From a virus, in the UHGV virus genome UHGV-1756799: 15,469 nt of DNA; one strand, 5' to 3'. The position numbers were made by a program, and so were the translations under genes. The first letter of the stretch is position 1. Each line of letters starts with the position of its first letter. The notes under the pieces are model-generated. The model saw only the letters and a list, made by a program, of their open reading frames with translations. It ran no database searches and was not told the origin of the DNA. This document shows positions 455-15,469 of this stretch, piece after piece.

Positions 455-3400
455 TACCGATATGCTCCACTTAACCGACCACCATCACGGGCCTGCTGTT
501 GCATAAAGTCCGCTGCCGCTTTTTTCCCGAGGTCATAAACCGCCTTCAGGGCAGCCGGACCTATCTGCCCGTTCGTGCCATCGTTATTGATCTCGATGTT
601 GTACTGCGGGGAAAACATCGCCATACCTGAACCCCCAATATCCGCCACAACCCCCAGCTTACCGTCAGCACCACGACGCAATGGCAGAATGGCTTCAGGT
701 CCCGCTTCCCCCATCACACCCGCGCCTTTTGCAAAAGCAAAAAACGTCGGACGGTTAACCACCGTGCCACTGTAACGACTCAAATCAGCAGACTGATAAA
801 TCCCCCCATTGGCATTCAGGGAAAGGCTGCTGAGATCAAATCCCAGCACACTGCCAATCCCTTTTATCGATTTCATCATGGTTGCCTGCGCCAGGATTTT
901 CGCCATATCTGACAGCACAGAAGAGGTGAAGGATTTGAAATTGAGTTTGCCGGTAGTGACAAAAGTTGCCAGGCCATTTCCCATGTTGCTGAAGGCTGAC
1001 GAGAACACCTGTTCTGCTGTTCCTGCCGTATTATCTGCATCCACGGTAAAATCCTGAAATGCACGCAGGACTCCGTTTTTCCAGTTACCCTGCACAACTT
1101 CAAGCTGTTGCCAGTAACGGCGATTCTCATTCAGTTGTCGGTTCAGGCTCTCCGTCAGCGCCTGCTCGGCCTTTCTGTAGTCATCCGTGTTATATGTTCC
1201 TTTCTGCTCACTATCCCGCCTCAACTGCTCCAGCTGTTGCTGGTATTTCTGGCGAAGACTCAGTTGTACCTGATATCGCTGCCGCTGCTGATCACCCATA
1301 CCCACCGTGGCGATATCCAGGTCATGTTGCTGACGCTGAGCGCGCTCTTCTTCAGCCAGTTGACTGGTCAGCTGAATTGTTTTTTTCTTCAGCTCGTTGA
1401 GTGCCGTCTGTTTCTGAAGCTCCTGCTGTTTTACATCCAGCAGCGTCAGTGCCTGAATCAGTTCATCTTTACGGGCCAGCACACTCTTTTCATCTGCCGT
1501 CAGTTTTTTCCCGTCCAGGTCGCTGATGCGCTGCTGCAGAGCCAGAAGCTGTTTATGCGCTTCTGTCATCCTTTCCGTGGCAATGCCTGCTGACTGTCTG
1601 GCAGCAGCAATCTGTCCTTCCACCTGTGCCTGTTGCTGACTGTACTGCAGCAATAACCGGGTGGCCTCATCATTACGGGGTTCGCGTGTTTTTTTCTTAC
1701 CGGATGCCAGGGCTTTCTCGTAACGTTCATTTTCACGTTGTATCGCTGCATCCCTGACAGCCTGATCGGCGTACTGCATGGAATTAATACGCGCAATTTC
1801 ACGCTGATGTCGTGCTGCTTCCGTTTCATTCATCCGGTTCAGTGCAGCATTTTCAGCATTACGTCGTTTCTGTTGCTCCTGATAATTCCGCTCTGCCTGC
1901 TCTTTTGCATCCTGCAAATCCTTCTGGCGTTTTTTCTCCTGAAGATCGTTAAGACGCTGCTGATCGTATTCAACCTGAGAAGATGATGCCGTCCAGGGGA
2001 GTCTTTTCGCCCGCGACACTTTCTCCTGTAAAGCGGCAATCTGTTCATCCAGCGAGTCTTCACGACCAATATTCATGGCCGCATCCCAGAAACGACTCCA
2101 CAAATCAGACAGATACTTCAGCGTACTGCCAAGCGCATTGAGGTTATTATCAATATCCGCAGTACGCCGACCGGTTTCCTCTGCCAGTGCAGACATGGCT
2201 ATCCGTGCAGCATCACTGGACCGTCCCTGATCCCCAAGGACACGTATCTGCTCAAGCTGAGTGGCAGTAAGAAAATGCAGCTCATTGTCCAGAGCCTTCG
2301 CGGCATTTACAGGATCATCCTTCAGCCGCTTAAACTGATTTATGGTATCGCTGACCGACTGGCCAACCGATCGCTCCATCTGTGCGGCAGCTCTCGCCAC
2401 CATACCGATATCGTTTCCACGAAATGCACCACTCCCCACCACCTGAGCCAGCGCACCGGCTGCAGCATGTTGCGTGATACCATTCCCGGAAATAGCACGA
2501 CTGAGCGTCCACAGCTGCCCGGCAGTGACTCCGGCATAATGCCCCGTCAGCGACAACTGGCGGTTAAATTCTTCCCCCTCCTTCTGACCGTCATACCAGG
2601 CTTTACCCAGACCATAGACGGACGCGGCAATACCGCCAATAACCCCGCCAAGCATCATGCCTTTCGGTGACATCAGAGTGTCTATCCATCCGGCACGGTT
2701 AGCCAGCGTTATCCCGGATCCCCTCAGCGCCCCTAAATTGCCGCGGGCCAGTTCACCTATCAGAACGCCAATCTCCTGGCGGGCCGCTGCACTTTTCAGA
2801 CCCAGCGAATGCGTGGCTTTTCCTGCCTGCTCCATTTTGCGGATATACACTTCTGCAGCACTGCTTACCCCCAGCTGGGCAGCCTTAGCACGAAGCAACT
2901 CAGAAGAAGAAAGATTCTGGCGGGTTGCCTGCTCTTTAAGCTGACGGATAAACGCCACTTTCTGTCGGGTAGCCTCTTCCTCAGCCTGCGTAAGAACACG
3001 GGTTTTCGCCGTAACCTCAGAAATCAGCGCCAGATAATCCTGCTGACCAATCCCGCCACTGTTTCTGGCCTGTCGGATCTGCTGCTGAATACGCTGTAAT
3101 TCCTGCAGCCCCGCACTGGCCTGTTTCACACTGTCAATCTGACGATAAAACGCGGCAGCCGCTTTATCCTGAGCCTCCGCCAGAGCCATGGCCTGCGCCT
3201 GTTCCTCGCGCATTTTCTGGCTCAGTGCCTCCATACGCTGGCGGGTTTGCTCCACCTCGCGGGCCATGCGTTCATGAGCCTGTGCGCTCTTCTCCACCGT
3301 CTGCGCATGGACGGATGCGGCTGTTGCAGCCGAAGAAGCCGCCTGCATTGTCTGCCGGGCGGCCTGAGTCTGACGCTCCATAAAACGCTGCATACGGGCA

Positions 3401-6696: not shown

Positions 6697-8655
6697 TTAC
6701 GCCGTACATTTCACCAGACCGCGGTGATCAACTGGCGCGACACCGGCGTCAATACGCACTTTCGTTGTCACGCCATCCACACTGAAGCCCTCCATCTGAT
6801 CAATATATGGCGTATCCACACCGTTGAGATAAGCCACTTCAATCGTATCGGAGCCTTTTGACGCAGCCAGGTAGAAGGTGGTCTGGCTGTTATCATCAAG
6901 ACGAGGCTCTGCAATAACGGTCGCAAAATCTTTCACCGGGTTAATAATACCGGCGTTAATGTCAGCCCCCTTGACACTTGAGGAGCGAATGACCTGGTTA
7001 GCAACAGACTCCATCGCCGTCGGTACCAGTACGAACGCAGGACGAATATTCAGATGACGCTCCCCCTCTTTCTGAACGCGCATCAACTGGCGGGCTTTAT
7101 CCAGCGATGCCACGTCCATTGCAGCGCTCTCCAGTACGTTTGCATGTTTCGCTTTATCGAACAGACTTACATTATCTGTGGAGATTTTCGGGTTAGACGT
7201 CAGAATGGCATAAACCAGATCGGCAATAGTGGATTTCGCCGCACGGCCCAGTTTCATCGGGACATCGGTCAGCATATTCAGATCATCATTGATAATGGCC
7301 TGACGGGTGATACTGAACAGCTCGCCATAGGTCGCCAGTGCAATAGTGGCCTGTTTATCTCCGGTGGTGACGTATTTATATTCCGCCCCTTCACGCACCT
7401 GACGTAGAGCACTGAAGCCCCCCATACCCACACGATGGGCAATTTTAAAATCAGACAACTGACCTTTCCGCGTCCACTGTTCATAGGTTTCAGGGGCATC
7501 TTCCCAGCCCTGCAGAATGGCTTTGTTCGCAACATCCAGCAGAATATTACCGAAGTCAGACGTACTGTGTGTGAACGCCGCACCGACCATCTGCATCGGG
7601 TTATAACCGGAAACCCCAATACCCCGTTCAGTTAGTGACATACGGGCATATTCACGCAGGGTCATCCCGTTGTAGACATTATCACGTTCGGTTTTTTCAA
7701 ATCCGGCACGCGCCATCAGCGCCTGGCGAATCCCGTCCCCCACAAAATTACCGTTACCGGCATAAATATGAGCCGGGGTATTTTTATTGGATGGCGTGGA
7801 CTCGCGCCCCATCTCGTTCAACAGCTTTTCACGGGCCTGCTCCAGCGAACATTCAGGATCGGCAAGACACTGGGCCTGCAGCGTCTGATAACGCCCGCCA
7901 AACATGGCAAACAGATCATTAATACCGTTTACACGCGCTTTTTGCTCTGCCAGTACCTGCGCACGGATACTGTTTTCATCCACCACGGGTGCTGCTGCCT
8001 GCACTGGCGTCCGGGAGGCTGCAGGTTCATCATCCTGTACGCGTGGAGCACTGTTGCGTGGCGGAGTAATCATGTTTCGAATGGATTCCGGCATCTTTTT
8101 AAATTCCTCTGTACGTTTTGACTGAATACATGCCATTGCCTTAACGGCTGGTGTCACCTGATCAGCAAATCCCTGTGCCAGACATTCGGCACCGGACATC
8201 CAGGTCTCATCCGCCAGCATGGCAGCAATTTCATCGGTGGTTTTCCCGGTTTTCTGTGCATAAGCGGGTAACAGAACCGCCTCAACTTTATCGAGCAGGT
8301 CGGCATAGGTGCGCATGTCCTCCGCATCACCGCCCGTAAAGCCAAATGGTTTATGAATCATCATGAAGGAGTTTTCCGGCATAATGACCGGGTTTCCCAC
8401 CATCGCAATGACCGACGCCATTGACGCCGCCACACCGTCGACATAAACGGTAATGGACGCACCATGTGTTTTCAGTGCATTAAAAATGGCGATGCCTTCA
8501 AAGACATCGCCACCCGGTGAATTAATATGGAGATTAATGTGGGTGATATCGCCCAGTGCATTCAGATCACTGATAAACTGCTTCGCTGTAACACCCCAGA
8601 AACCAATCTCGTCATAAATATAAATATCCGCGTCACTCTGGTGACCTGCCTGCAT
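6697..8655 (-). CDS. Prohead protease (ClpP/S49-like) fused to HK97-fold major capsid protein, about 652 aa
   Basis: N-terminal part has ClpP-like sequence (IYIYDEIGFWG...INSPGGDVFEG...MMIHKP); the long C-terminal part looks like a phage major capsid protein; single continuous ORF. The track start at 8916 is TTG and overlaps the portal by 248 nt; I chose ATG at 8655, 13 nt after the portal stop. Confidence 0.8.
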   Translation of the reverse strand: MQAGHQSDADIYIYDEIGFWGVTAKQFISDLNALGDITHINLHINSPGGDVFEGIAIFNALKTHGASITVYVDGVAASMASVIAMVGNPVIMPENSFMMIHKPFGFTGGDAEDMRTYADLLDKVEAVLLPAYAQKTGKTTDEIAAMLADETWMSGAECLAQGFADQVTPAVKAMACIQSKRTEEFKKMPESIRNMITPPRNSAPRVQDDEPAASRTPVQAAAPVVDENSIRAQVLAEQKARVNGINDLFAMFGGRYQTLQAQCLADPECSLEQAREKLLNEMGRESTPSNKNTPAHIYAGNGNFVGDGIRQALMARAGFEKTERDNVYNGMTLREYARMSLTERGIGVSGYNPMQMVGAAFTHSTSDFGNILLDVANKAILQGWEDAPETYEQWTRKGQLSDFKIAHRVGMGGFSALRQVREGAEYKYVTTGDKQATIALATYGELFSITRQAIINDDLNMLTDVPMKLGRAAKSTIADLVYAILTSNPKISTDNVSLFDKAKHANVLESAAMDVASLDKARQLMRVQKEGERHLNIRPAFVLVPTAMESVANQVIRSSSVKGADINAGIINPVKDFATVIAEPRLDDNSQTTFYLAASKGSDTIEVAYLNGVDTPYIDQMEGFSVDGVTTKVRIDAGVAPVDHRGLVKCTA

Positions 8656-8668
8656 CCTGAACCAGGAA

Positions 8669-10177
8669 TTATTCTTCGGACTGGTCGTCGGTGTGCTGCG
8701 GCTCCTGTCGTTTCGTTGCGGCACTGCTGCCTCCTTTATCACTGGCCGGATCGGTATCAAATACCAGATCCAGCTTGCGGTTTTCATCAATTTCGGCCTT
8801 GCGCCGACGTTTGACATCATCCGGATTACGACCACCTGCACGTACCCAGTCTGATTCTGTCGCCGCTCCACCACGAATCTGAATTTTCCAGGCCTCAGCC
8901 TCCTTAACAGGGTCAATCCACGGCATCACCGGTCCGGAATACACCGCGGTATACAGTGAAGAACGATCAAGATCGCGGGGTAGCCTGATAACACCGGATG
9001 CCACAGCCTGTTTCAGCCAGGCACGATACATCGGGCGGGTGACGGCACCAATAAACCAGTCCTGCAGGATCAGGTAGCCATCAGTGGATTCAACCAGCTC
9101 CTGACGCTGGGCGCTGTAAGTGCCGTTATAGTTGCGTGCCGTACTGGAAAAACTCAGACGACTGCCCGCCGCCACGGCACGCAACTGACCATTACGAAAA
9201 GTTTCAAGGTTAGGATTGGGACGATCCGACTTCACCATTCCGATTTCTTCGCCGGGTTTCAGATCGTCGTAAATAATGCCTGGCTGAATGGTAAGCTCGC
9301 GTTCATTCTCCTTGCTGCCATTACCATCCGGTTCATAGCTCTGCCCGTCGCCTTTCCGGATGTACATCCCCAGAGCAGCGGCGATCCTTGCTGCAGTCAG
9401 CTCAGAATCTTCATACTCTTTCAGGGCACTGAGGCGGATCAGCACACCGGACAACAAAGACGTCCCGCGCATCTGGTGCAGACGGCGAACAAATTTAAGA
9501 TGCAGCATTCGCTCTGCATCCACTTCTTTGGTTTCCATCTGCCGCCCGGATACGGGACGGCTTTTATACACCAGATATTTTTCGGGACGCCCCCAGTCAT
9601 CAACAAACACGCCCTGATTCAGCCTGTTGCTCTCATCACTGGTCATGGGAATAAAGTCCGGCTCGAGCGCCTCCAGCCAGAAATGAACACCGGCAGAAGG
9701 CGTCAGGCTGTTTATGCGCCCGGAAACCATCTGGGCAAACACCTCACCATCGCGCAGCCAGGTACGCAGCATCAGACGTTCCAGCATCGGACGGGTAAAC
9801 TGCCCGGTGACTTCCGGACTGACAGACCATTCACTCCATCGGGTGCGTATCTCCGCTGCCAGATCACGGGCAATGGCCCCATTGCGTAATACCGGATGTG
9901 GCTCGACAATAATCCCGTTTTTCCCCACCACCCGTTCTTCCAGCTTGTCAAATACACCAATAACCAGATCGTGGTTGTTATCAAGGTAACGGGCCTGCTC
10001 ACGTAACGACACGGCCCCGTACTGGCTTAACTGGTCGGCAGTTCGGTTTTCCCGCCGGGCTTTGTGTGTCCGTGTCGTTTTTACGGCCTCATAAGCCTGG
10101 ATCACCGCACGGGAACGCAGCCTTGCCGCTTTCCATCCTGGTGAAAAAACGCCAATCACATCATCAAGAATTGCCAT
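8669..10177 (-). CDS. Portal protein
   Basis: About 502-aa ORF between the gpW-like gene and the protease-capsid gene; the track start at 10249 is GTG; ATG at 10177 (MAILDDVIG...) overlaps the gpW-like stop as TGATG. Size, position and acidic C-terminus fit a portal. Confidence 0.8.
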   Translation of the reverse strand: MAILDDVIGVFSPGWKAARLRSRAVIQAYEAVKTTRTHKARRENRTADQLSQYGAVSLREQARYLDNNHDLVIGVFDKLEERVVGKNGIIVEPHPVLRNGAIARDLAAEIRTRWSEWSVSPEVTGQFTRPMLERLMLRTWLRDGEVFAQMVSGRINSLTPSAGVHFWLEALEPDFIPMTSDESNRLNQGVFVDDWGRPEKYLVYKSRPVSGRQMETKEVDAERMLHLKFVRRLHQMRGTSLLSGVLIRLSALKEYEDSELTAARIAAALGMYIRKGDGQSYEPDGNGSKENERELTIQPGIIYDDLKPGEEIGMVKSDRPNPNLETFRNGQLRAVAAGSRLSFSSTARNYNGTYSAQRQELVESTDGYLILQDWFIGAVTRPMYRAWLKQAVASGVIRLPRDLDRSSLYTAVYSGPVMPWIDPVKEAEAWKIQIRGGAATESDWVRAGGRNPDDVKRRRKAEIDENRKLDLVFDTDPASDKGGSSAATKRQEPQHTDDQSEE

Positions 10178-10395
10178 CAGAACCTCGCCAGCCGGTACCC
10201 GGGATGCCCCCGTCGTCGTGTAATCAGAGCCGCAAGGCGGCGCTCCCACTCCTGCCGTCCCTGCCGGATCTCAGATAAGTTTTCCATGGTCATCTGCTGA
10301 CCATTAAAGGTGACGGATTTTCCGTCCAGCACCGCCATTTCAGCTTCCGTATAACGCTGAATCATGGCTTCGATATCATTCTGGTTCATAACCAT
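10177..10395 (-). CDS. W: gpW-like head-tail joining protein
   Basis: About 70-aa ORF ending in RRRGHPGY, resembling the C-terminus of lambda gpW (QRRRGPAGF); the second ATG at 10389 overlaps the terminase stop as ATGA. Confidence 0.7.
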   Translation of the reverse strand: MVMNQNDIEAMIQRYTEAEMAVLDGKSVTFNGQQMTMENLSEIRQGRQEWERRLAALITRRRGHPGYRLARF

Positions 10396-12488
10396 CCTCC
10401 GGAAGTCAGCCAGGGGTTAACATCGTCAGTTACTGTTTTCTTCCGTTTTTGTTTTTTAACAGGCGTGGATACCGGTTCCGGTGTGGGTGACGGTTCGGTA
10501 CTGTCCGGGACACACTCCAGCCAGGTTTCCCGGCTCGCCCACTCCGGTGCATCCGGCCAGCGGATCTTTTCGTATCCATGCAGAATGACCAGAGCCTCGG
10601 CATACACCATCAGGTCAAAAGCTTCGTTGGCACCGCGACCCGGCTTACTCCATTTCCCGTCACTGCTCCGCTCTTCATACGTCAGTTCGTCGTAAAACCA
10701 GCTCCCCAGCCAGTCAGGGAAATGCACATAGCCGGGACCTGGCGAGTCACGCCATAACGCGTTATTCACCCGGTCTTTCAGGGCATCCGTCTGAAGAAGC
10801 CAGAGCGGCACATCACCTGCGGCCTGCGCCCGGCGGCCCGTTCGTCCGGTGTTATCAGGGAATGTACGGCTGATCAGTTTTGCGCGCCGGATGCTGTCAC
10901 CCTTAAACAGGTAAATACGTTTACCAAGGCCATCACGACGGCAACGACGCCAGAATTTATAGGCATTATCAGTGACCCCGTCTTCACCGCCGGAGTCCAC
11001 CGCCATTGCCATCAGTCGCATTTGTTGAGAAGGATCGGAGGCCAGCGGCCAGCTTTTATGAAAAACATCCGTCAGCAGGACATCCCAGTCTTCCGGATAG
11101 CTGGCCGGATCAATTCGCTGGCTCTCCCCGTCGCTGTCACCGCGCAATGACTGCGTGATGTTGTAACGATCAATAATCCAGCGTTCGCCACGGCTGCCAT
11201 AGCCCGTTACCTGAACCACAAAACGGCGATGACGTCCCGCCTGCACATCCACTGTCGCCACAAGGAAATTAACGCCATCCGGCACACTGCGGGAAGGAAC
11301 TGGCTCTGCCCGCTGCTCAAGCAATTCACTTTTTCGTTGCTCCATGCTGGCGCGGGGAAGATAAGGTAATCCCCAGTCGGTATTGATAACCGTCTTGAGT
11401 GTCTCTTCACTTCCGGTTGTCTCGTATTCCTGTTCTGCAGTAAGCAGTTTGTAAACGAGTTGCGAGAGTGTCTGATAAGCAGCTGCCGGACCCTCCATCC
11501 AGAATGACGCAATACGTGAACGCCGGGGATCACCATAACGACTGCCATCTGCATTGATGGATTCACCATCCCGTAACCAGACCCCACGTCCGTTCAGCTC
11601 GCGTTTTTGTTCAGGCAAAATCCGTCCTGAACAGGAAGGACACTGAATATAAGCCGCCTCACTTGCCAGCACAGGATCGGCAATATCACGGAAACCAGCA
11701 ACCACATCGCCGCAGGGCTGAAAATACTCACCACAGTGTGGACAGGGCCAGTACCAGCGACGGCGATCGCCACGGTTATAGAGCGACAGGATCCCCGTGG
11801 TTGGTGGAGCCTCATGCGGTGAAGTCCGTCGCCATTTCACATCCTTCACATCCCTGCCGGGGGAACTCTCCACCAGCGTCATACCACTGGACATAAATGT
11901 GGTGGTACGTTTTGAGGCAAGAGAGAAGGCATCCCCCTCACCATCAATATCTTCCGGAAAACGGTCATAATCCGTCAGCGCCACGCATTTATAATCTGAT
12001 GAAGACATGATATTGACTGACGGCCAGCCGATTTTCAGGTAGTTGCCAGCAAGGAATGTTCTGTCATAAACGTTGTTGTCATTTTTGTTCGGACTCAGGC
12101 GACTGACCACTTCCGGGCTGACGCGAAACGTTCTGGCGAGTCGTTTTTTGGAGTGTTCGCGGGCTTTTTCCTCCGTCATCTGAATGATCAGCATATCAGC
12201 AGGATCGCAAATCACGTTGTAAATCACCCAGCCGTCAATCAGGCCGATAGTCTTGCCGGTTCGTGCCGGGCCAACAAATATCACTGCGTCGTATTCACGC
12301 GAGGCCAGGCAGTTCATAGGCTCAATAACATACGGTGCCACCAGCGGATCCCACGGGACTGAGTTCCCTGCCCCCATAGGCACCCGCATATACTGAGCAA
12401 CGGCATCAGCAACCCGCATTCGTCTCGGTGCGCGAAGGATATAACCTGAATCGGTTCGTGCTGCCTTTGCGGTTTCCTGATTCAGCAT
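10386..12488 (-). CDS. Terminase large subunit, GpA family
   Basis: 700-aa ORF with Walker A-like VGPARTGKT, a CPHCGE zinc-finger-like motif as in lambda gpA, and acidic nuclease-domain residues; start overlaps the small-subunit stop as TAATG. Confidence 0.9.
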   Translation of the reverse strand: MLNQETAKAARTDSGYILRAPRRMRVADAVAQYMRVPMGAGNSVPWDPLVAPYVIEPMNCLASREYDAVIFVGPARTGKTIGLIDGWVIYNVICDPADMLIIQMTEEKAREHSKKRLARTFRVSPEVVSRLSPNKNDNNVYDRTFLAGNYLKIGWPSVNIMSSSDYKCVALTDYDRFPEDIDGEGDAFSLASKRTTTFMSSGMTLVESSPGRDVKDVKWRRTSPHEAPPTTGILSLYNRGDRRRWYWPCPHCGEYFQPCGDVVAGFRDIADPVLASEAAYIQCPSCSGRILPEQKRELNGRGVWLRDGESINADGSRYGDPRRSRIASFWMEGPAAAYQTLSQLVYKLLTAEQEYETTGSEETLKTVINTDWGLPYLPRASMEQRKSELLEQRAEPVPSRSVPDGVNFLVATVDVQAGRHRRFVVQVTGYGSRGERWIIDRYNITQSLRGDSDGESQRIDPASYPEDWDVLLTDVFHKSWPLASDPSQQMRLMAMAVDSGGEDGVTDNAYKFWRRCRRDGLGKRIYLFKGDSIRRAKLISRTFPDNTGRTGRRAQAAGDVPLWLLQTDALKDRVNNALWRDSPGPGYVHFPDWLGSWFYDELTYEERSSDGKWSKPGRGANEAFDLMVYAEALVILHGYEKIRWPDAPEWASRETWLECVPDSTEPSPTPEPVSTPVKKQKRKKTVTDDVNPWLTSGGWL

Positions 12489-12982
12489 TACTCCTCCTGC
12501 TGTAATTCCTCCTCATCATCCGCACCTGCTTCAGTCACCCGCAGGGCTATCTGATCGCGCAGATCATCAATAATGGACTGAACACGGCTCACAGCGGCAG
12601 GCTGCAGACCGCAGTCACGTTCAAGAATATCCGGTAATGTCTCCAGCACCTGCACGACCGCTTTTGCCCAGATGGCAAACTCCCGTCTGACATCACTGGC
12701 CGGAATGAGTTGTGCCGTTTCCTGTTCGAACTTAAGACGCTCACGTTCAGACTGATACCAGGCTTTGCGCTCATGCGCGTCCATTTCGCCTTCTGCAACC
12801 GGCGGTGGTAATGCCAGAAATGCCGACACAATATCAACCACCCGATAAAGCTTGAGGTTGCTTTCATGCCCCCCTGCAACGGGTAGATTTTGCAGCCTTG
12901 CCGCAGCAGTCTGGCGATGTACACCTGACAATGCCGCCAGTTGACTGATATTCAGCGTCAGATTTTTTAACTCTCGATCCAT
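12488..12982 (-). CDS. Terminase small subunit (Nu1-like), N-terminal HTH
   Basis: 164 aa directly upstream of the large terminase; N-terminal helix-turn-helix-like segment (LNISQLAALSGVHRQTAAARL) and acidic C-terminus; RBS GGAG 5 nt upstream. Confidence 0.75.
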   Translation of the reverse strand: MDRELKNLTLNISQLAALSGVHRQTAAARLQNLPVAGGHESNLKLYRVVDIVSAFLALPPPVAEGEMDAHERKAWYQSERERLKFEQETAQLIPASDVRREFAIWAKAVVQVLETLPDILERDCGLQPAAVSRVQSIIDDLRDQIALRVTEAGADDEEELQQEE

Positions 12983-13085
12983 ACCCGCTCCAGAATGTTT
13001 TAAACATGCATCTTGCGAACAACTTTAGGCAAACGGTGTTAGTGATGAACAAAAAACAATCAGAATCGACACCATAAAAATAAAT

Positions 13086-13116
13086 CCACTGTAATATCAA
13101 TCAATTACAGTAGTGG
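13086..13116. promoter_or_regulatory. Imperfect inverted repeat with an embedded IHF-consensus match (candidate cosB-type terminase/IHF binding region)
   Basis: CCACTGTAAT...ATTACAGTAGTGG inverted repeat; TATCAATCAATTA (13095-13107) fits WATCAANNNNTTR; lies between the GC-rich element and the small-terminase start. Confidence 0.35.
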
Positions 13117-13159
13117 TGATGACGAATAAAATTTCAAAAACTAGCCTTTTTCCGCGACG

Positions 13160-13192
13160 CTCCCGCCCCGTGGCAGGGGCCCCCACCGGGAG
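13160..13192. promoter_or_regulatory. GC-rich nested palindrome, candidate cosN-like terminase cleavage site
   Basis: CTCCCG-CCCC-GTGGCA-GGGG-CCCCCAC-CGGGAG: outer CTCCCG/CGGGAG and inner GCCCC/GGGGC inverted repeats in a sharply GC-rich island inside AT-rich DNA, about 180-210 bp upstream of the terminase small-subunit start, comparable to cos-Nu1 spacing in lambda. Confidence 0.35.
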
Positions 13193-13197
13193 GACCC

Positions 13198-13220
13198 GAC
13201 AGCCTGACAGCCTGACAGCC
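13198..13220. repeat. Tandem direct repeat, about 2.9 copies of the octamer GACAGCCT
   Basis: gacagcct gacagcct gacagcc read directly from the sequence, adjacent to the palindrome. Confidence 0.85.
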
Positions 13221-13356
13221 GTGACGAGCATCTGATACAGCGCTTTACATAATGGCATAGGAATAATTCAGAAGGACATCACAGCATGCCCACACAAATT
13301 AGTGTGAGTGTCCTGTTTCTTCCTACGCACAGGACTGACGAGCATGAGGGGAAAAT

Positions 13357-13524
13357 ATGCGAACCATAAATGCCTCATCTTCAGCAATGCAGCCGGCATC
13401 CGAACAGGACGATATTGTAAATTCACCTAATTACGAGGACATTGCAGTAGTTGAATTGCAGCTCTGTATTAGCCTGACAGTGACAGAATGCGATATTGAC
13501 TCTGTCACAGGTGAAATAGTTTGA
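13357..13524 (+). CDS. Hypothetical small acidic protein, 55 aa
   Basis: Not in the ORF track (below 60 aa). ATG at 13357 with GAGGGG 5 nt upstream; translation MRTINASSSAMQPASEQDDIVNSPNYEDIAVVELQLCISLTVTECDIDSVTGEIV. No homolog recognised; it converges on the 68-aa ORF with only 20 nt between stops and no terminator. Confidence 0.25.
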   Translation: MRTINASSSAMQPASEQDDIVNSPNYEDIAVVELQLCISLTVTECDIDSVTGEIV

Positions 13525-13544
13525 ATGATTAGCAGTTATGGTGC

Positions 13545-13751
13545 TCAGTCAACCACCAGGGAATAATCCTTCGAATTCTTATCGTGCTTCACCAACGCTG
13601 CCTCAATTGCCCTGAATGCTTCCAGAGACACCTGATGTTCTATACATGCAATTACAACATCCGGGTAACTCATAGAAATGGTGCTATTAAGCATATTTTT
13701 TACACGAATCAGATCCAACGAGAGTTCATCAGCAGATTGTTCTTTATTCAT
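13545..13751 (-). CDS. Hypothetical small protein, 68 aa (possibly the counterpart of K-12 Qin ynfO by position)
   Basis: ATG start with GGAG 7 nt upstream; lies between the terminase/cos region and the ydfO-like gene, where K-12 Qin carries a small gene between nohQ and ydfO. I do not recognise the sequence itself. Confidence 0.45.
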
Positions 13752-14051
13752 TTTGTCGCTCCATGCGTTTGCTCGTCATCTAGCGGTTAAAATATTACTT
13801 CAAATCTTACTGCATAAAAGAGGAAAAGTATGAAAGTTTGAGTACATCGACCTTACATACATCTGTCGGTTGCATATCCCTCCTGGATGCCAGCAAGGCT
13901 CAATTTTGTTACGCAATCAACACTATTCATTAAAAACAGGCTTAATATTTGACATAAATCATCAACAAAACACAAAGAGGTCAGACCAGATTAAAACAAT
14001 AAACACGATAATGCAAACTACGCGCCATCGTATCACATGGAAGGTTTACCA

Positions 14052-14462
14052 ATGGCTCAGGCTGCCATTTTTAAAGAAATATTCGATCAAGTGCGTAAAG
14101 ATTTAAACTGTGAATTATTTTATTCTGAGCTAAAACGTCACAATATCTCACTTTATATTTACTATTTAGCCACAGATAATATTCACATTGTGTTAGAAAA
14201 CGACAACATAGTGTTAGTAAAAGGACTCAAAAAGGTTGTAAATGTTAAATTCTCCAGAAACAAACATCTTATAGAGACCTCCTATAATAAGTTGAAATCA
14301 AAAGAAATCACATTTCAACAATACAGGGAAAATCTTGCTAAAGCAGGAGTTTTCCGATGGGTTACAAATATCCAGGAACACCAAAGATATTACTATGCCT
14401 TTGATAACTCATTACTATTTACTGAAAGCATCCAGAAAACTACACAGATCTTACCACGCTAA
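14052..14462 (+). CDS. ydfO: YdfO-like protein (DUF1398 family), prophage moron
   Basis: 136 aa from the second ATG ([11 protein letters not shown]...), which has GGAAGG 7 nt upstream; the first ATG at 14037 lacks an RBS. Matches my recollection of K-12 Qin YdfO and its position next to gnsB and the Nu1-like gene. Confidence 0.6.
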
Positions 14463-14470
14463 ACCATAAC

Positions 14471-14499
14471 GTCCGGCTTCTCTCACTCCTGAGCCGGAC
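14471..14499 (+). terminator. Hairpin downstream of ydfO-like gene (weak candidate terminator)
   Basis: GTCCGGCT-13 nt-AGCCGGAC, 8-bp stem beginning 9 nt after the stop; large loop and no clean T-tract. Confidence 0.3.
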
Positions 14500-14551
14500 T
14501 GCATTGGTTTAATAAAAACCATCAACAATTGTGATTTAGATATTCGGAACC

Positions 14552-14574
14552 ATTCAAATATAACAAAACCCCGT
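14552..14574 (-). terminator. Candidate intrinsic terminator for the gnsB-like gene
   Basis: Minus-strand CCUCG-UUUUUA-CGGGG (one G-U pair) followed by UUUUGUU, about 40 nt after the gnsB-like stop. Confidence 0.4.
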
Positions 14575-14613
14575 AAAAACGAGGTTTATGGATAAATTTT
14601 ATTATTGAATACA

Positions 14614-14790
14614 TCAGATTAAATTAATCTTGACATCATAGCTTTCAAGACCCGTCATTTTTTCCCGTGCGGTAAACTGAATACTGGTAACTTCTTTCCC
14701 GGTCTTTTTCTTAAGTTCAATAATTTTTTTTGTTATATATTCAGAAATATCTGCTTCTGCTTTTGTTTTTAAGTTTTCAATATTCATCAT
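14614..14790 (-). CDS. gnsB: GnsA/GnsB-family protein, 58 aa
   Basis: Not in the ORF track (below 60 aa). Translation MMNIENLKTKAEADISEYITKKIIELKKKTGKEVTSIQFTAREKMTGLESYDVKINLI; the FTAREKMTGLESYDVKI segment matches E. coli GnsA/GnsB as I recall them; RBS AAGAGGAAA upstream. Confidence 0.8.
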   Translation of the reverse strand: MMNIENLKTKAEADISEYITKKIIELKKKTGKEVTSIQFTAREKMTGLESYDVKINLI

Positions 14791-14958
14791 TTCCTCTTTT
14801 AGTCTGTTATGACTTTCCAGTTACACAGTAAGTCGATTATATGGTGCAAACGTGTAAAAGATAAGATGAAACATCGCAATAATCAACATACGATAGTCTA
14901 AATTTTACACAAACAGACAAAGAGAATTTTCCTGAATTATCAATACAATAGCATCAAA

Positions 14959-15189
14959 TCAACTCAAGAGCCTTATTGCTGCTTCCAGAATTTCTTCTGA
15001 AGTAACATGTCGATCCGCGGCTACATAAATGACTTTATGATCTCCGGTCAGAGATGGAAACCCTGCGGCCATTACAGTAAGGTGTGTTTTTTCGCCATTT
15101 GGATATTCACGCATGATGGTGTTAACTCCAGTCATCGCTGGCACTACCACTGCTGGTTCAGAGTTAAAAAAAACTATGATTTTTTTCAT
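14959..15189 (-). CDS. Small protein, 76 aa, upstream partner of the gnsB-like gene (YmcE/YnfN-like by position and size)
   Basis: ATG at 15189 (MKKIIVFFNSEP...); the track start at 15231 is TTG and lies in the terminator. Same strand as and 168 nt upstream of gnsB, like ymcE-gnsA and ynfN-gnsB in K-12. Weak RBS; sequence not recognised with certainty. Confidence 0.5.
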   Translation of the reverse strand: MKKIIVFFNSEPAVVVPAMTGVNTIMREYPNGEKTHLTVMAAGFPSLTGDHKVIYVAADRHVTSEEILEAAIRLLS

Positions 15190-15233
15190 GATGTTACCGT
15201 AGTATGTGAGTATCCATCGAATAGATACCAAGC

Positions 15234-15253
15234 AAAAAAGCTCCCGAAGGAGC
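15234..15253 (-). terminator. Intrinsic terminator (possibly bidirectional)
   Basis: Minus-strand GGCUCC-UUCG-GGAGC(C) with a UUCG tetraloop followed by UUUUUU; the plus-strand side is also followed by T-rich sequence. Immediately after the stop at 15262 of an upstream minus-strand ORF. Confidence 0.6.
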
Positions 15254-15261
15254 CTTCATTT

Positions 15262-15418
15262 TCACTTTTTTAAATCCAACGACAGACGGCTGGCATTTAA
15301 GTATTGTGAAATATTATCAAATGTAATCATCATTGATTTACAAAAGATACATTTTGCCCCGAAAGGATTCATGTCAGAAACATCAAAAGATGATGTTCTA
15401 TACTGGGAACCATGACAA
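15262..15418 (-). CDS. C-terminal fragment of an unidentified minus-strand gene (truncated by the contig end)
   Basis: Open minus-strand frame ending at TGA 15262-15264 (...YRTSSFDVSDMNPFGAKCIFCKSMMITFDNISQYLNASRLSLDLKK) and followed by a strong terminator; the track ORF 15262-15447 extends into adapter sequence, so only 15262-15418 is genomic. Confidence 0.25.
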
Positions 15419-15469
15419 CTGTCTCTTATACACATCTCCGAGCCCACGAGACATCTCAGGATCTCGTAT
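15419..15469 (+). other. Illumina Nextera (Tn5 mosaic-end) adapter read-through; not biological sequence
   Basis: CTGTCTCTTATACACATCTCCGAGCCCACGAGAC, then an 8-nt index-like ATCTCAGG, then ATCTCGTAT (start of the P7 sequence). Confidence 0.95.

Follow-up and report, generated by a model that had tools for sequence, protein, structure and literature searches.

A very probable lambda-type cos site beside a DUF1441 small-terminase gene in a lambda-like prophage, with a variable octamer repeat at its edge

Just upstream of the small-terminase gene in UHGV virus genome UHGV-1756799, a GC-rich stretch with short inverted repeats, a tandem array of octamers and a match to the IHF consensus lie close together. 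The question is whether they form a cos site, where such a site would be cut and whether the octamers have a part in it. We analysed the whole 15,469-nt stretch of DNA (the window) and conclude, with high confidence, that a lambda-like prophage, its head and terminase module being of the Gifsy-2/mEp213 type, has its cos site here, with packaging in the direction of the minus strand. All long open reading frames to the left of the site are on the minus strand, and because the site lies upstream of a minus-strand small-terminase gene, it must be read on that strand. Five genes follow it, all on the minus strand: those for the small terminase TerS (12488-12982), the large terminase TerL (10386-12488), a head-tail adaptor (10177-10395), a lambda-family portal (8669-10249) and a fused ClpP-protease/capsid protein (6697-8916). 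A preliminary description had called this a cos region of lambda-like layout, in which an IHF site separates the cut site from the small-terminase gene, and that call is borne out. Its distance to the small-terminase start (about 180-250 bp) is also correct, as the ATG at 12982 (minus strand) is 178-248 bp from the feature.

The terminase resembles that of lambda in family and predicted fold rather than in overall sequence. TerL belongs to the gpA family (Pfam GpA_ATPase, 1.6e-71; GpA_nuclease, 1.1e-85) and is 25% identical to lambda gpA (BLASTP, E 3e-19), vs 80% identical to the TerL of phage Tritos. TerS, of 164 aa, falls in the DUF1441/phrog_141 family (Pfam E 2.7e-41; PHROG "terminase small subunit" E 7e-74), and its N-terminal domain is a winged helix-turn-helix. 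Its Pfam family is DUF1441, not Nu1, and against lambda Nu1 it gave no match in BLASTP and a probability of 9% in hhalign. A profile search against the PDB returned only a weak HTH match (E 0.07). The best fold match of the predicted model of the N-terminal domain is lambda TerS, and in this model the domain has the winged helix-turn-helix of the Nu1 fold; the fold search with the full-length model was dominated by coiled-coil matches and was uninformative. In RefSeq, this type of small terminase is named only "DUF1441 family protein".

The core of the site is evident from a single pattern. GGGTCCT-N18-24-CGGGGCGG, which describes cosQ, the spacer and cosN, has one match in the window, at 13163-13197 on the minus strand, and none in 200 shuffles. 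The putative packaging-termination element cosQ (GGGTCCT, 13191-13197, minus strand) is identical at 7/7 positions to the lambda heptamer at 48473-48479. The heptamer is common to lambda, DLP12 and cdtI, BLAST matches to distant phages start at it, and its role and natural invariance have been described (PMC4669245). It is followed by a spacer of 20 nt (CCCGGTGGGGGCCCCTGCCA, 13171-13190, minus strand); the spacer has 20 or 21 nt in most of the lambda-type cos sites that we sampled, and 21 in lambda. Alignment to lambda and the ends of the Tritos and cdtI records place cosN at 13155-13170 (minus strand). From homology, lambda genetics and the ends of deposited records, we infer nicks between 13169 and 13168 on the top strand and between 13157 and 13156 on the bottom strand, which would leave the 12-nt 5' cohesive end GGGCGGGAGCGT (13168-13157). 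CG flanks the cohesive end on both sides (13170-13169 and 13156-13155), as it does in lambda.

With the presumed nicks marked by slashes, the minus strand reads GGCTGTCA GGCTGTCA GGCTGTCG-GGTCCT CCCGGTGGGGGCCCCTGCCA CG/GGGCGGGAGCGT/CGCGG AAAAAGGCTAGTTTTTGAAATTTTATT, and the joined ends of lambda (NC_001416) read GGGTCCT TTCCGGTGATCCGACAGGTTA CG/GGGCGGCGACCT/CGCGG GTTTTCGCTATTTATGAAAATTTT. The statement in the preliminary description that this is not the lambda cosN sequence does not stand in view of the common CG and CGCGG flanks and the identical cosQ. The cohesive end is identical to that of lambda at 8/12 positions, with 6/6 in the left half and mismatches only at positions 7, 8, 9 and 11. 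Natural variation in lambda-like cos sites falls in positions 7-12, with cosQ and the CG flanks conserved (PMC4669245), and the four differences thus agree with the naturally varying half. Twofold symmetry at cosN is 12/22 here vs 10/22 in lambda. From cosQ to p45 (p gives the distance in nucleotides from the left end) the identity with lambda is 60%, and the small-terminase ATG lies at p187 vs p191 in lambda.

This sequence already serves as the opening point of deposited phage genomes. The linear record of Tritos (OV696610) ends with the base equivalent to 13169 (...CCTGCCACG) and begins with GGGCGGGAGCGT, and the record of cdtI (AB285204) is opened at the same base. The cut site, which had been called unknown, can therefore be placed from homology together with the ends at which these deposited genomes are opened. 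The record of mEp460_4F5 (GenBank LR595868, 1-30) starts 5 nt upstream of the presumed nick and has 3 nt missing inside the cohesive end (GGGCGGGAGC-GCGG); the missing 3 nt and the break are probably an assembly artefact at physical ends. In a literature search, the exact 12-mer GGGCGGGAGCGT was found in no relevant paper, and no paper on phage Tritos or HannyBb was found.

To the left of cosN in window coordinates lies an AT-rich, I2-like segment with poly-dA and poly-dT runs (GGAAAAAGGCTAGTTTTTGAAATTTTATT, 13124-13154, minus strand; p16-44). I2 has been defined as about bp 18-50 with poly-dA/dT runs (PMC4856287). The segment is conserved to p33 in all cosB classes, and a sharp mosaic joint follows at about 13135 (p~34): cosQ, cosN and I2 are identical up to the joint, and beyond it three unrelated cosB sequences occur with matching TerS N-termini, with TerL staying about 80% identical. 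Because the core is identical to about p33 and diverges completely thereafter, the specificity module (cosB and the TerS N-terminus) starts at about 13135. The comparison with Tritos and cdtI illustrates this joint. Both have cosQ, cosN and I2 identical to the window to p33, and in both cosB is another sequence from p34; the TerS of Tritos differs from ours at the N-terminus, and the overall identity of 42% lies mostly in the C-terminal half.

Beyond the joint, the best-defined element is an I1-like IHF core (TATCAATCAATTA; consensus WATCAANNNNTTR) at 13095-13107 on the plus strand; an A/T tract precedes it on the 5' side, at about 13076-13087. The consensus has a single match in the window vs 0.7 expected, which is not significant by count, and the significance of the match comes from its position and conservation. 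Across 10 diverged DUF1441-type cos sites, the TGA of the TTGAT core is invariant and the flanking T's are conserved in at least 90%; among 22 class-A variants (class A being the cosB/TerS class of the window), the consensus positions are kept, and the NNNN positions take 9 different values. The core is enclosed by an 8-bp inverted repeat with 100% complementary arms, ACTGTAAT at 13088-13095 and ATTACAGT at 13104-13111 (13088-13111 in all). The inverted repeat with an IHF-consensus match that had been described between the cos element and the small-terminase start is hence present. A reading of the repeat as a conserved protein site or structure is not supported: among the DUF1441-type cosB classes it occurs in that of the window only, and changes in one arm are not compensated in the other. 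Sequence conservation accordingly supports the IHF site but not the inverted repeat around it.

When ten diverged left ends of the DUF1441 type were aligned, four blocks past I2 proved to be conserved, namely the TTGAT of the IHF core and three others on the minus strand. We regard these three as candidate TerS sites: an R3-like site GTCATCACC at 13115-13123 (p46-54; block TCATCAYCAYC in the ten cos sites), an inverted R2-like site GGTGTCGAT (reverse complement ATCGACACC) at 13065-13073 within the conserved block TGTCGAAT, and a direct R1-like site TTCATCACT at 13041-13049 (conserved block TGTTCAYCAYC). In lambda, R3 is at p50-65 and the order is R3-I1-R2-R1 (PMC9026076). Since the inverted block, when reversed (ATCGACACC), resembles the other two, the order here is direct, IHF, inverted, direct, and would correspond to that of lambda. 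The putative roles of cosQ, I2 and IHF, like the labels R3, R2 and R1, are carried over from lambda genetics. The R-like motifs are short (7-9 bp) and not enriched (TCATCAC occurs 4 times in the window vs 2.9 expected), and they are of the TCATCAC type, unrelated to the CGTTTCC type of lambda. A search of the literature for a dissection of a DUF1441-type cosB found none.

The three blocks vary together with TerS. Among 76 unique DUF1441-type sequences, all three blocks have CAC where TerS reads LNISQLA (34 complete cases) and CAT where it reads LNINQLA (28), and the first base of the R2-like block, G or A, covaries with the CAC or CAT of the other two blocks. Few independent CAC/CAT events are represented in these counts, because the covariation comes down to about two clades. 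The CAC or CAT of the three R-like blocks and the S or N at TerS residue 13 may together form a packaging-specificity code, and DUF1441 small terminases may fall into at least two packaging-specificity groups that can be read from S13 or N13 and one base per R-like site. The proposed sites and the S13/N13 correlation are small additions and not a new kind of system. A conserved 28-nt block just upstream of the TerS start (AAAGTTGTTCGCAAGATGCATGTTTAAA, 12999-13026, minus strand) is common to the otherwise different cosB classes A, C and D, and the short cosB type also has a part of it (TTCGCAAGATG). An open reading frame across cos (13097-13258, minus strand, 53 aa) was set aside; it has no Pfam match and would be interrupted in virion DNA.

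The cos region here is lambda-type in build and ordinary among its relatives, with matches in thousands of genomes. It has in common with lambda the identical cosQ, a spacer of nearly the same length (20 nt vs 21), the AT-rich I2 and a similar position of the TerS start; the arrangement of the candidate TerS sites, two of which (one direct, one inverted) flank the IHF site while the last is direct, would also match. Two further systems are close. The putative cos of mEp213 and LLS has a DUF1441-type TerS (the "MDQEI..LNINQLA" group), a lambda-type cosQ and cosN, and a Gifsy-2-like fused protease-coat head gene, and 12-nt 5' ends have already been inferred, by similar reasoning, for this terminase and head type (PMC12315714, citing Vahanian et al. 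2017, Virology 509:140). It differs from the window in its cohesive end (GGGCGGCGCGCT), in a shorter cosB with the TerS ATG at about p130, in CAT-type candidate sites and in N13 vs S13 in the window. The cohesive end of Gifsy-1 (GGGCGGCAGCGT) is off by position 7 only; in the sampled loci, however, this overhang is paired with a Nu1-type TerS ("MNVNKKKLAEIFG") and not with DUF1441.

The GC-rich element itself could be read in another way, as a hairpin or cruciform with a function of its own (for example as a terminator, in recombination or as a signal for replication) and not as a part of packaging. It was presented in the preliminary description as a nested palindrome at 13160-13192, and its composition and complementary runs are indeed there: 28/33 bases are G or C (about 85% vs about 52% across the window), and short complementary runs occur (CTCCCG at 13160-65 with CGGGAG at 13188-93; GCCCC with GGGGC; GGGGCCCC). 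What does not stand is the palindrome as a functional unit. The arms have at most 6 bp, and a repeat search (seed 6, minimum 8) reported none in this stretch; the 83 nt that contain it (13150-13232), folded as single-stranded DNA, gave z = 0.07, with 100/200 dinucleotide shuffles equally stable. Because the fold is no better than that of the shuffles, the nested palindrome is not beyond chance for its composition. The stretch is in fact the cosQ-cosN spacer, which makes up most of it, together with the left part of the cohesive end, so that one arm is cohesive-end sequence; its centre lies at about 13176, vs 13162/13163 for the centre of cosN. In place of the palindromic centre GGGGCCCC, close relatives have GGGGTGGCC, GGGGGTCCC and others, and lambda has a sequence unrelated to it. 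In addition, no terminator-like site was called in the stretch and no Rfam match was found. On the fold, the terminator and Rfam negatives and the non-conserved centre, a hairpin function was rejected and has almost no chance of being correct. A less remote alternative, though still an improbable one, is that the region is cos by descent only, an intact-looking relic in a defective prophage that is never cut in its host. Cryptic K-12 prophages such as DLP12 do retain a near-perfect lambda cos, there beside nohD, and the prophage is visible here for 15.5 kb only. Against a relic, the conserved cos sub-sites are all intact and are followed by undisrupted, full-length open reading frames for TerS, TerL, the head-tail adaptor, the portal and the protease-capsid protein. 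A 521-bp stretch of the region recurs unchanged in many E. coli genomes (the best 15 records listed all have 100% identity and coverage), and 245 records match it at 99% identity or more. Moreover, among phage records searched by megablast, the free-living phage Tritos is 99.6% identical on the right side, and vB_EcoS-569R4 matches most of the region at 88.7%.

We return to the reading of the region as a lambda-type cos site, and to the octamers at its edge. The array (GGCTGTCA GGCTGTCA GGCTGTCG, 13197-13220, minus strand) was delimited by TRF and direct reading. It lies outside the conserved cos core and is flush with cosQ, the last G of the array being the first G of cosQ. TRF reports 13198-13225 with period 8, 3.4 copies, 95% matches and the consensus GACAGCCT; the 7-mer GGCTGTC occurs 7 times in the window vs 1.9 expected, with three adjacent occurrences in the array. 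The tandem octamers first noticed at 13198-13220, in about 2.9 copies, are therefore real and non-random, judging from TRF and the GGCTGTC count. They are not part of cosB: they lie across cosN from it, immediately outside cosQ, and would be at the right end of the packaged chromosome.

To see how the array is distributed, we used lambda-type cos sites gathered from IMG/VR by two pattern scans. The overhang GGGCGGGAGCGT is present in 115 of them: 30 without a unit, one with a single unit, 74 with two and 10 with three. When these 115 are separated by cosB/TerS class, the numbers of sites with 0, 1, 2 and 3 units are 16, 1, 37 and 3 in class A, 11, 0, 25 and 7 in class B (the Tritos/cdtI type), and 2, 0, 12 and 0 in class C; octamer copy number is thus independent of the cosB/TerS class. 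Tritos has the three-unit array, with the upstream 250 bp at 99.6% identity, and cdtI has no octamers. None of the sampled lambda-type cos sites with other overhangs, about 60 of which carry that of lambda, has octamer units. The three-unit allele is limited to the lineage whose two units are perfect copies, and a change between two and three units in this lineage only is what slippage would predict. Because the array is absent from 30/115 sites with the same overhang and is unlinked to the cosB/TerS class, it appears dispensable; from these comparisons of sequences it is probably a lineage-specific slippage repeat of variable copy number. The octamers were rejected as cosB or TerS sites because of their position, on the cosQ side, and because they combine freely with the three cosB/TerS classes. 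They were also rejected as Chi-like sites, since they are not GCTGGTGG. The window has two Chi sites, both inside the TerL gene, which is not significant.

It may still be asked whether the array is a working part of cos, such as an accessory protein-binding site that aids termination or a sequence that protects or marks the exposed right end. It is clearly non-random and flush with cosQ, its two-unit form is kept in two diverged upstream lineages (GGYTGTCAGGCTGTC and GCTGTCAGGCTGAC), and the right end that bears cosQ is nuclease-open after cutting (PMC4856287). Its absence from same-overhang sites includes, however, 16/57 of those with the same TerS/cosB class, and it is lacking in cdtI and in all the sampled sites with other overhangs; its copy number varies between two and three in the perfect-repeat lineage only, and it is not Chi. 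We therefore consider a working role doubtful, and equally doubtful its more specific form, in which the array would be an accessory element peculiar to the lineage that adjusts how terminase arrests at cosQ and nicks the bottom strand there, or that shields the right end. If the array were functional, a copy number of 0, 2 or 3 would set packaging processivity.

At the position of the array, other cos sites carry other sequences. Lambda differs from the window in having a Fur-box-like palindrome followed by a T-run there (TGATAATCATTATCA, 5-25 nt upstream of cosQ; 48451-48469), and DLP12 has the same at about 3095-3112. This combination is present in 49/232 sampled lambda-type cos sites, among them 36/59 with the overhang of lambda; other sampled sites have a terminator-like hairpin and T-run at the Fur-box position. 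A 17-nt direct repeat, ATGCTCGTCA(C/G)..CTGT, occurs at 13215-13231 and 13329-13345, 114 nt apart, and its cos-proximal copy overlaps into the first octamer. The stretch between the copies (13280-13330) is hairpin-rich (AGGACA...TGTCCT and CACAC-TAATT-TGTGTG) and has no Rfam match.

With the roles of the sub-sites taken from lambda genetics (PMC9026076, PMC4669245, PMC4856287), packaging at this site most likely proceeds as in lambda. Dimers of TerS (DUF1441, with a Nu1-like winged helix-turn-helix) and IHF would assemble on cosB (about 13124-13040) and position the gpA-type TerL on cosN. TerL would then nick at 13169/13168 on the gene strand and at 13157/13156 on the other strand, producing the 12-nt 5' cohesive ends GGGCGGGAGCGT, and packaging would run leftward in window coordinates, with the terminase genes entering first. 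At the next cos on the concatemer, cosQ (13197-13191), cosN and I2 would trigger the terminal cut. The octamers, outside cosQ, would not be needed by the packaging machinery.

No new mechanism is implied, and the value of the finding is practical more than conceptual, in that it locates the genome ends, and gives the direction of packaging, of a common type of E. coli prophage. The prophage family is very common indeed: the region has a match in 2114 of 5426 complete E. coli genomes. It is also evident that the cosQ-cosN-I2 core of lambda is common to terminases whose TerL is only 25% identical and whose TerS has no similarity detectable by BLASTP, and that the specificity module, which is exchangeable, starts about 34 bp in from the left end. 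The placement can be used for the correct opening of phage assemblies, for predicting helper packaging of cos-bearing elements (PICIs, cosmids) and for annotating DUF1441 as a small terminase.

Further to the right, on the strand opposite to the late genes, a 55-aa open reading frame (13357-13524, plus strand) has a full-length match to phrog_4035 (E 1e-41); PGAP leaves it unannotated in the identical prophage of E. coli 118UI (NZ_CP032515), whose copy of the 521-bp cos stretch is 100% identical. Between the lysis genes and cos, 13500-15469 is an AT-rich cargo segment (30-40% G+C). According to the annotation of the same 118UI prophage, it carries the Qin-like small genes gnsB, ynfN, ynfR and ymcF together with DUF1398 and ybcW homologues. 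A 21-bp unit is present twice in tandem (85% matches) at 14185-14226, inside the DUF1398 (ybcV-like) gene at 14037-14462.
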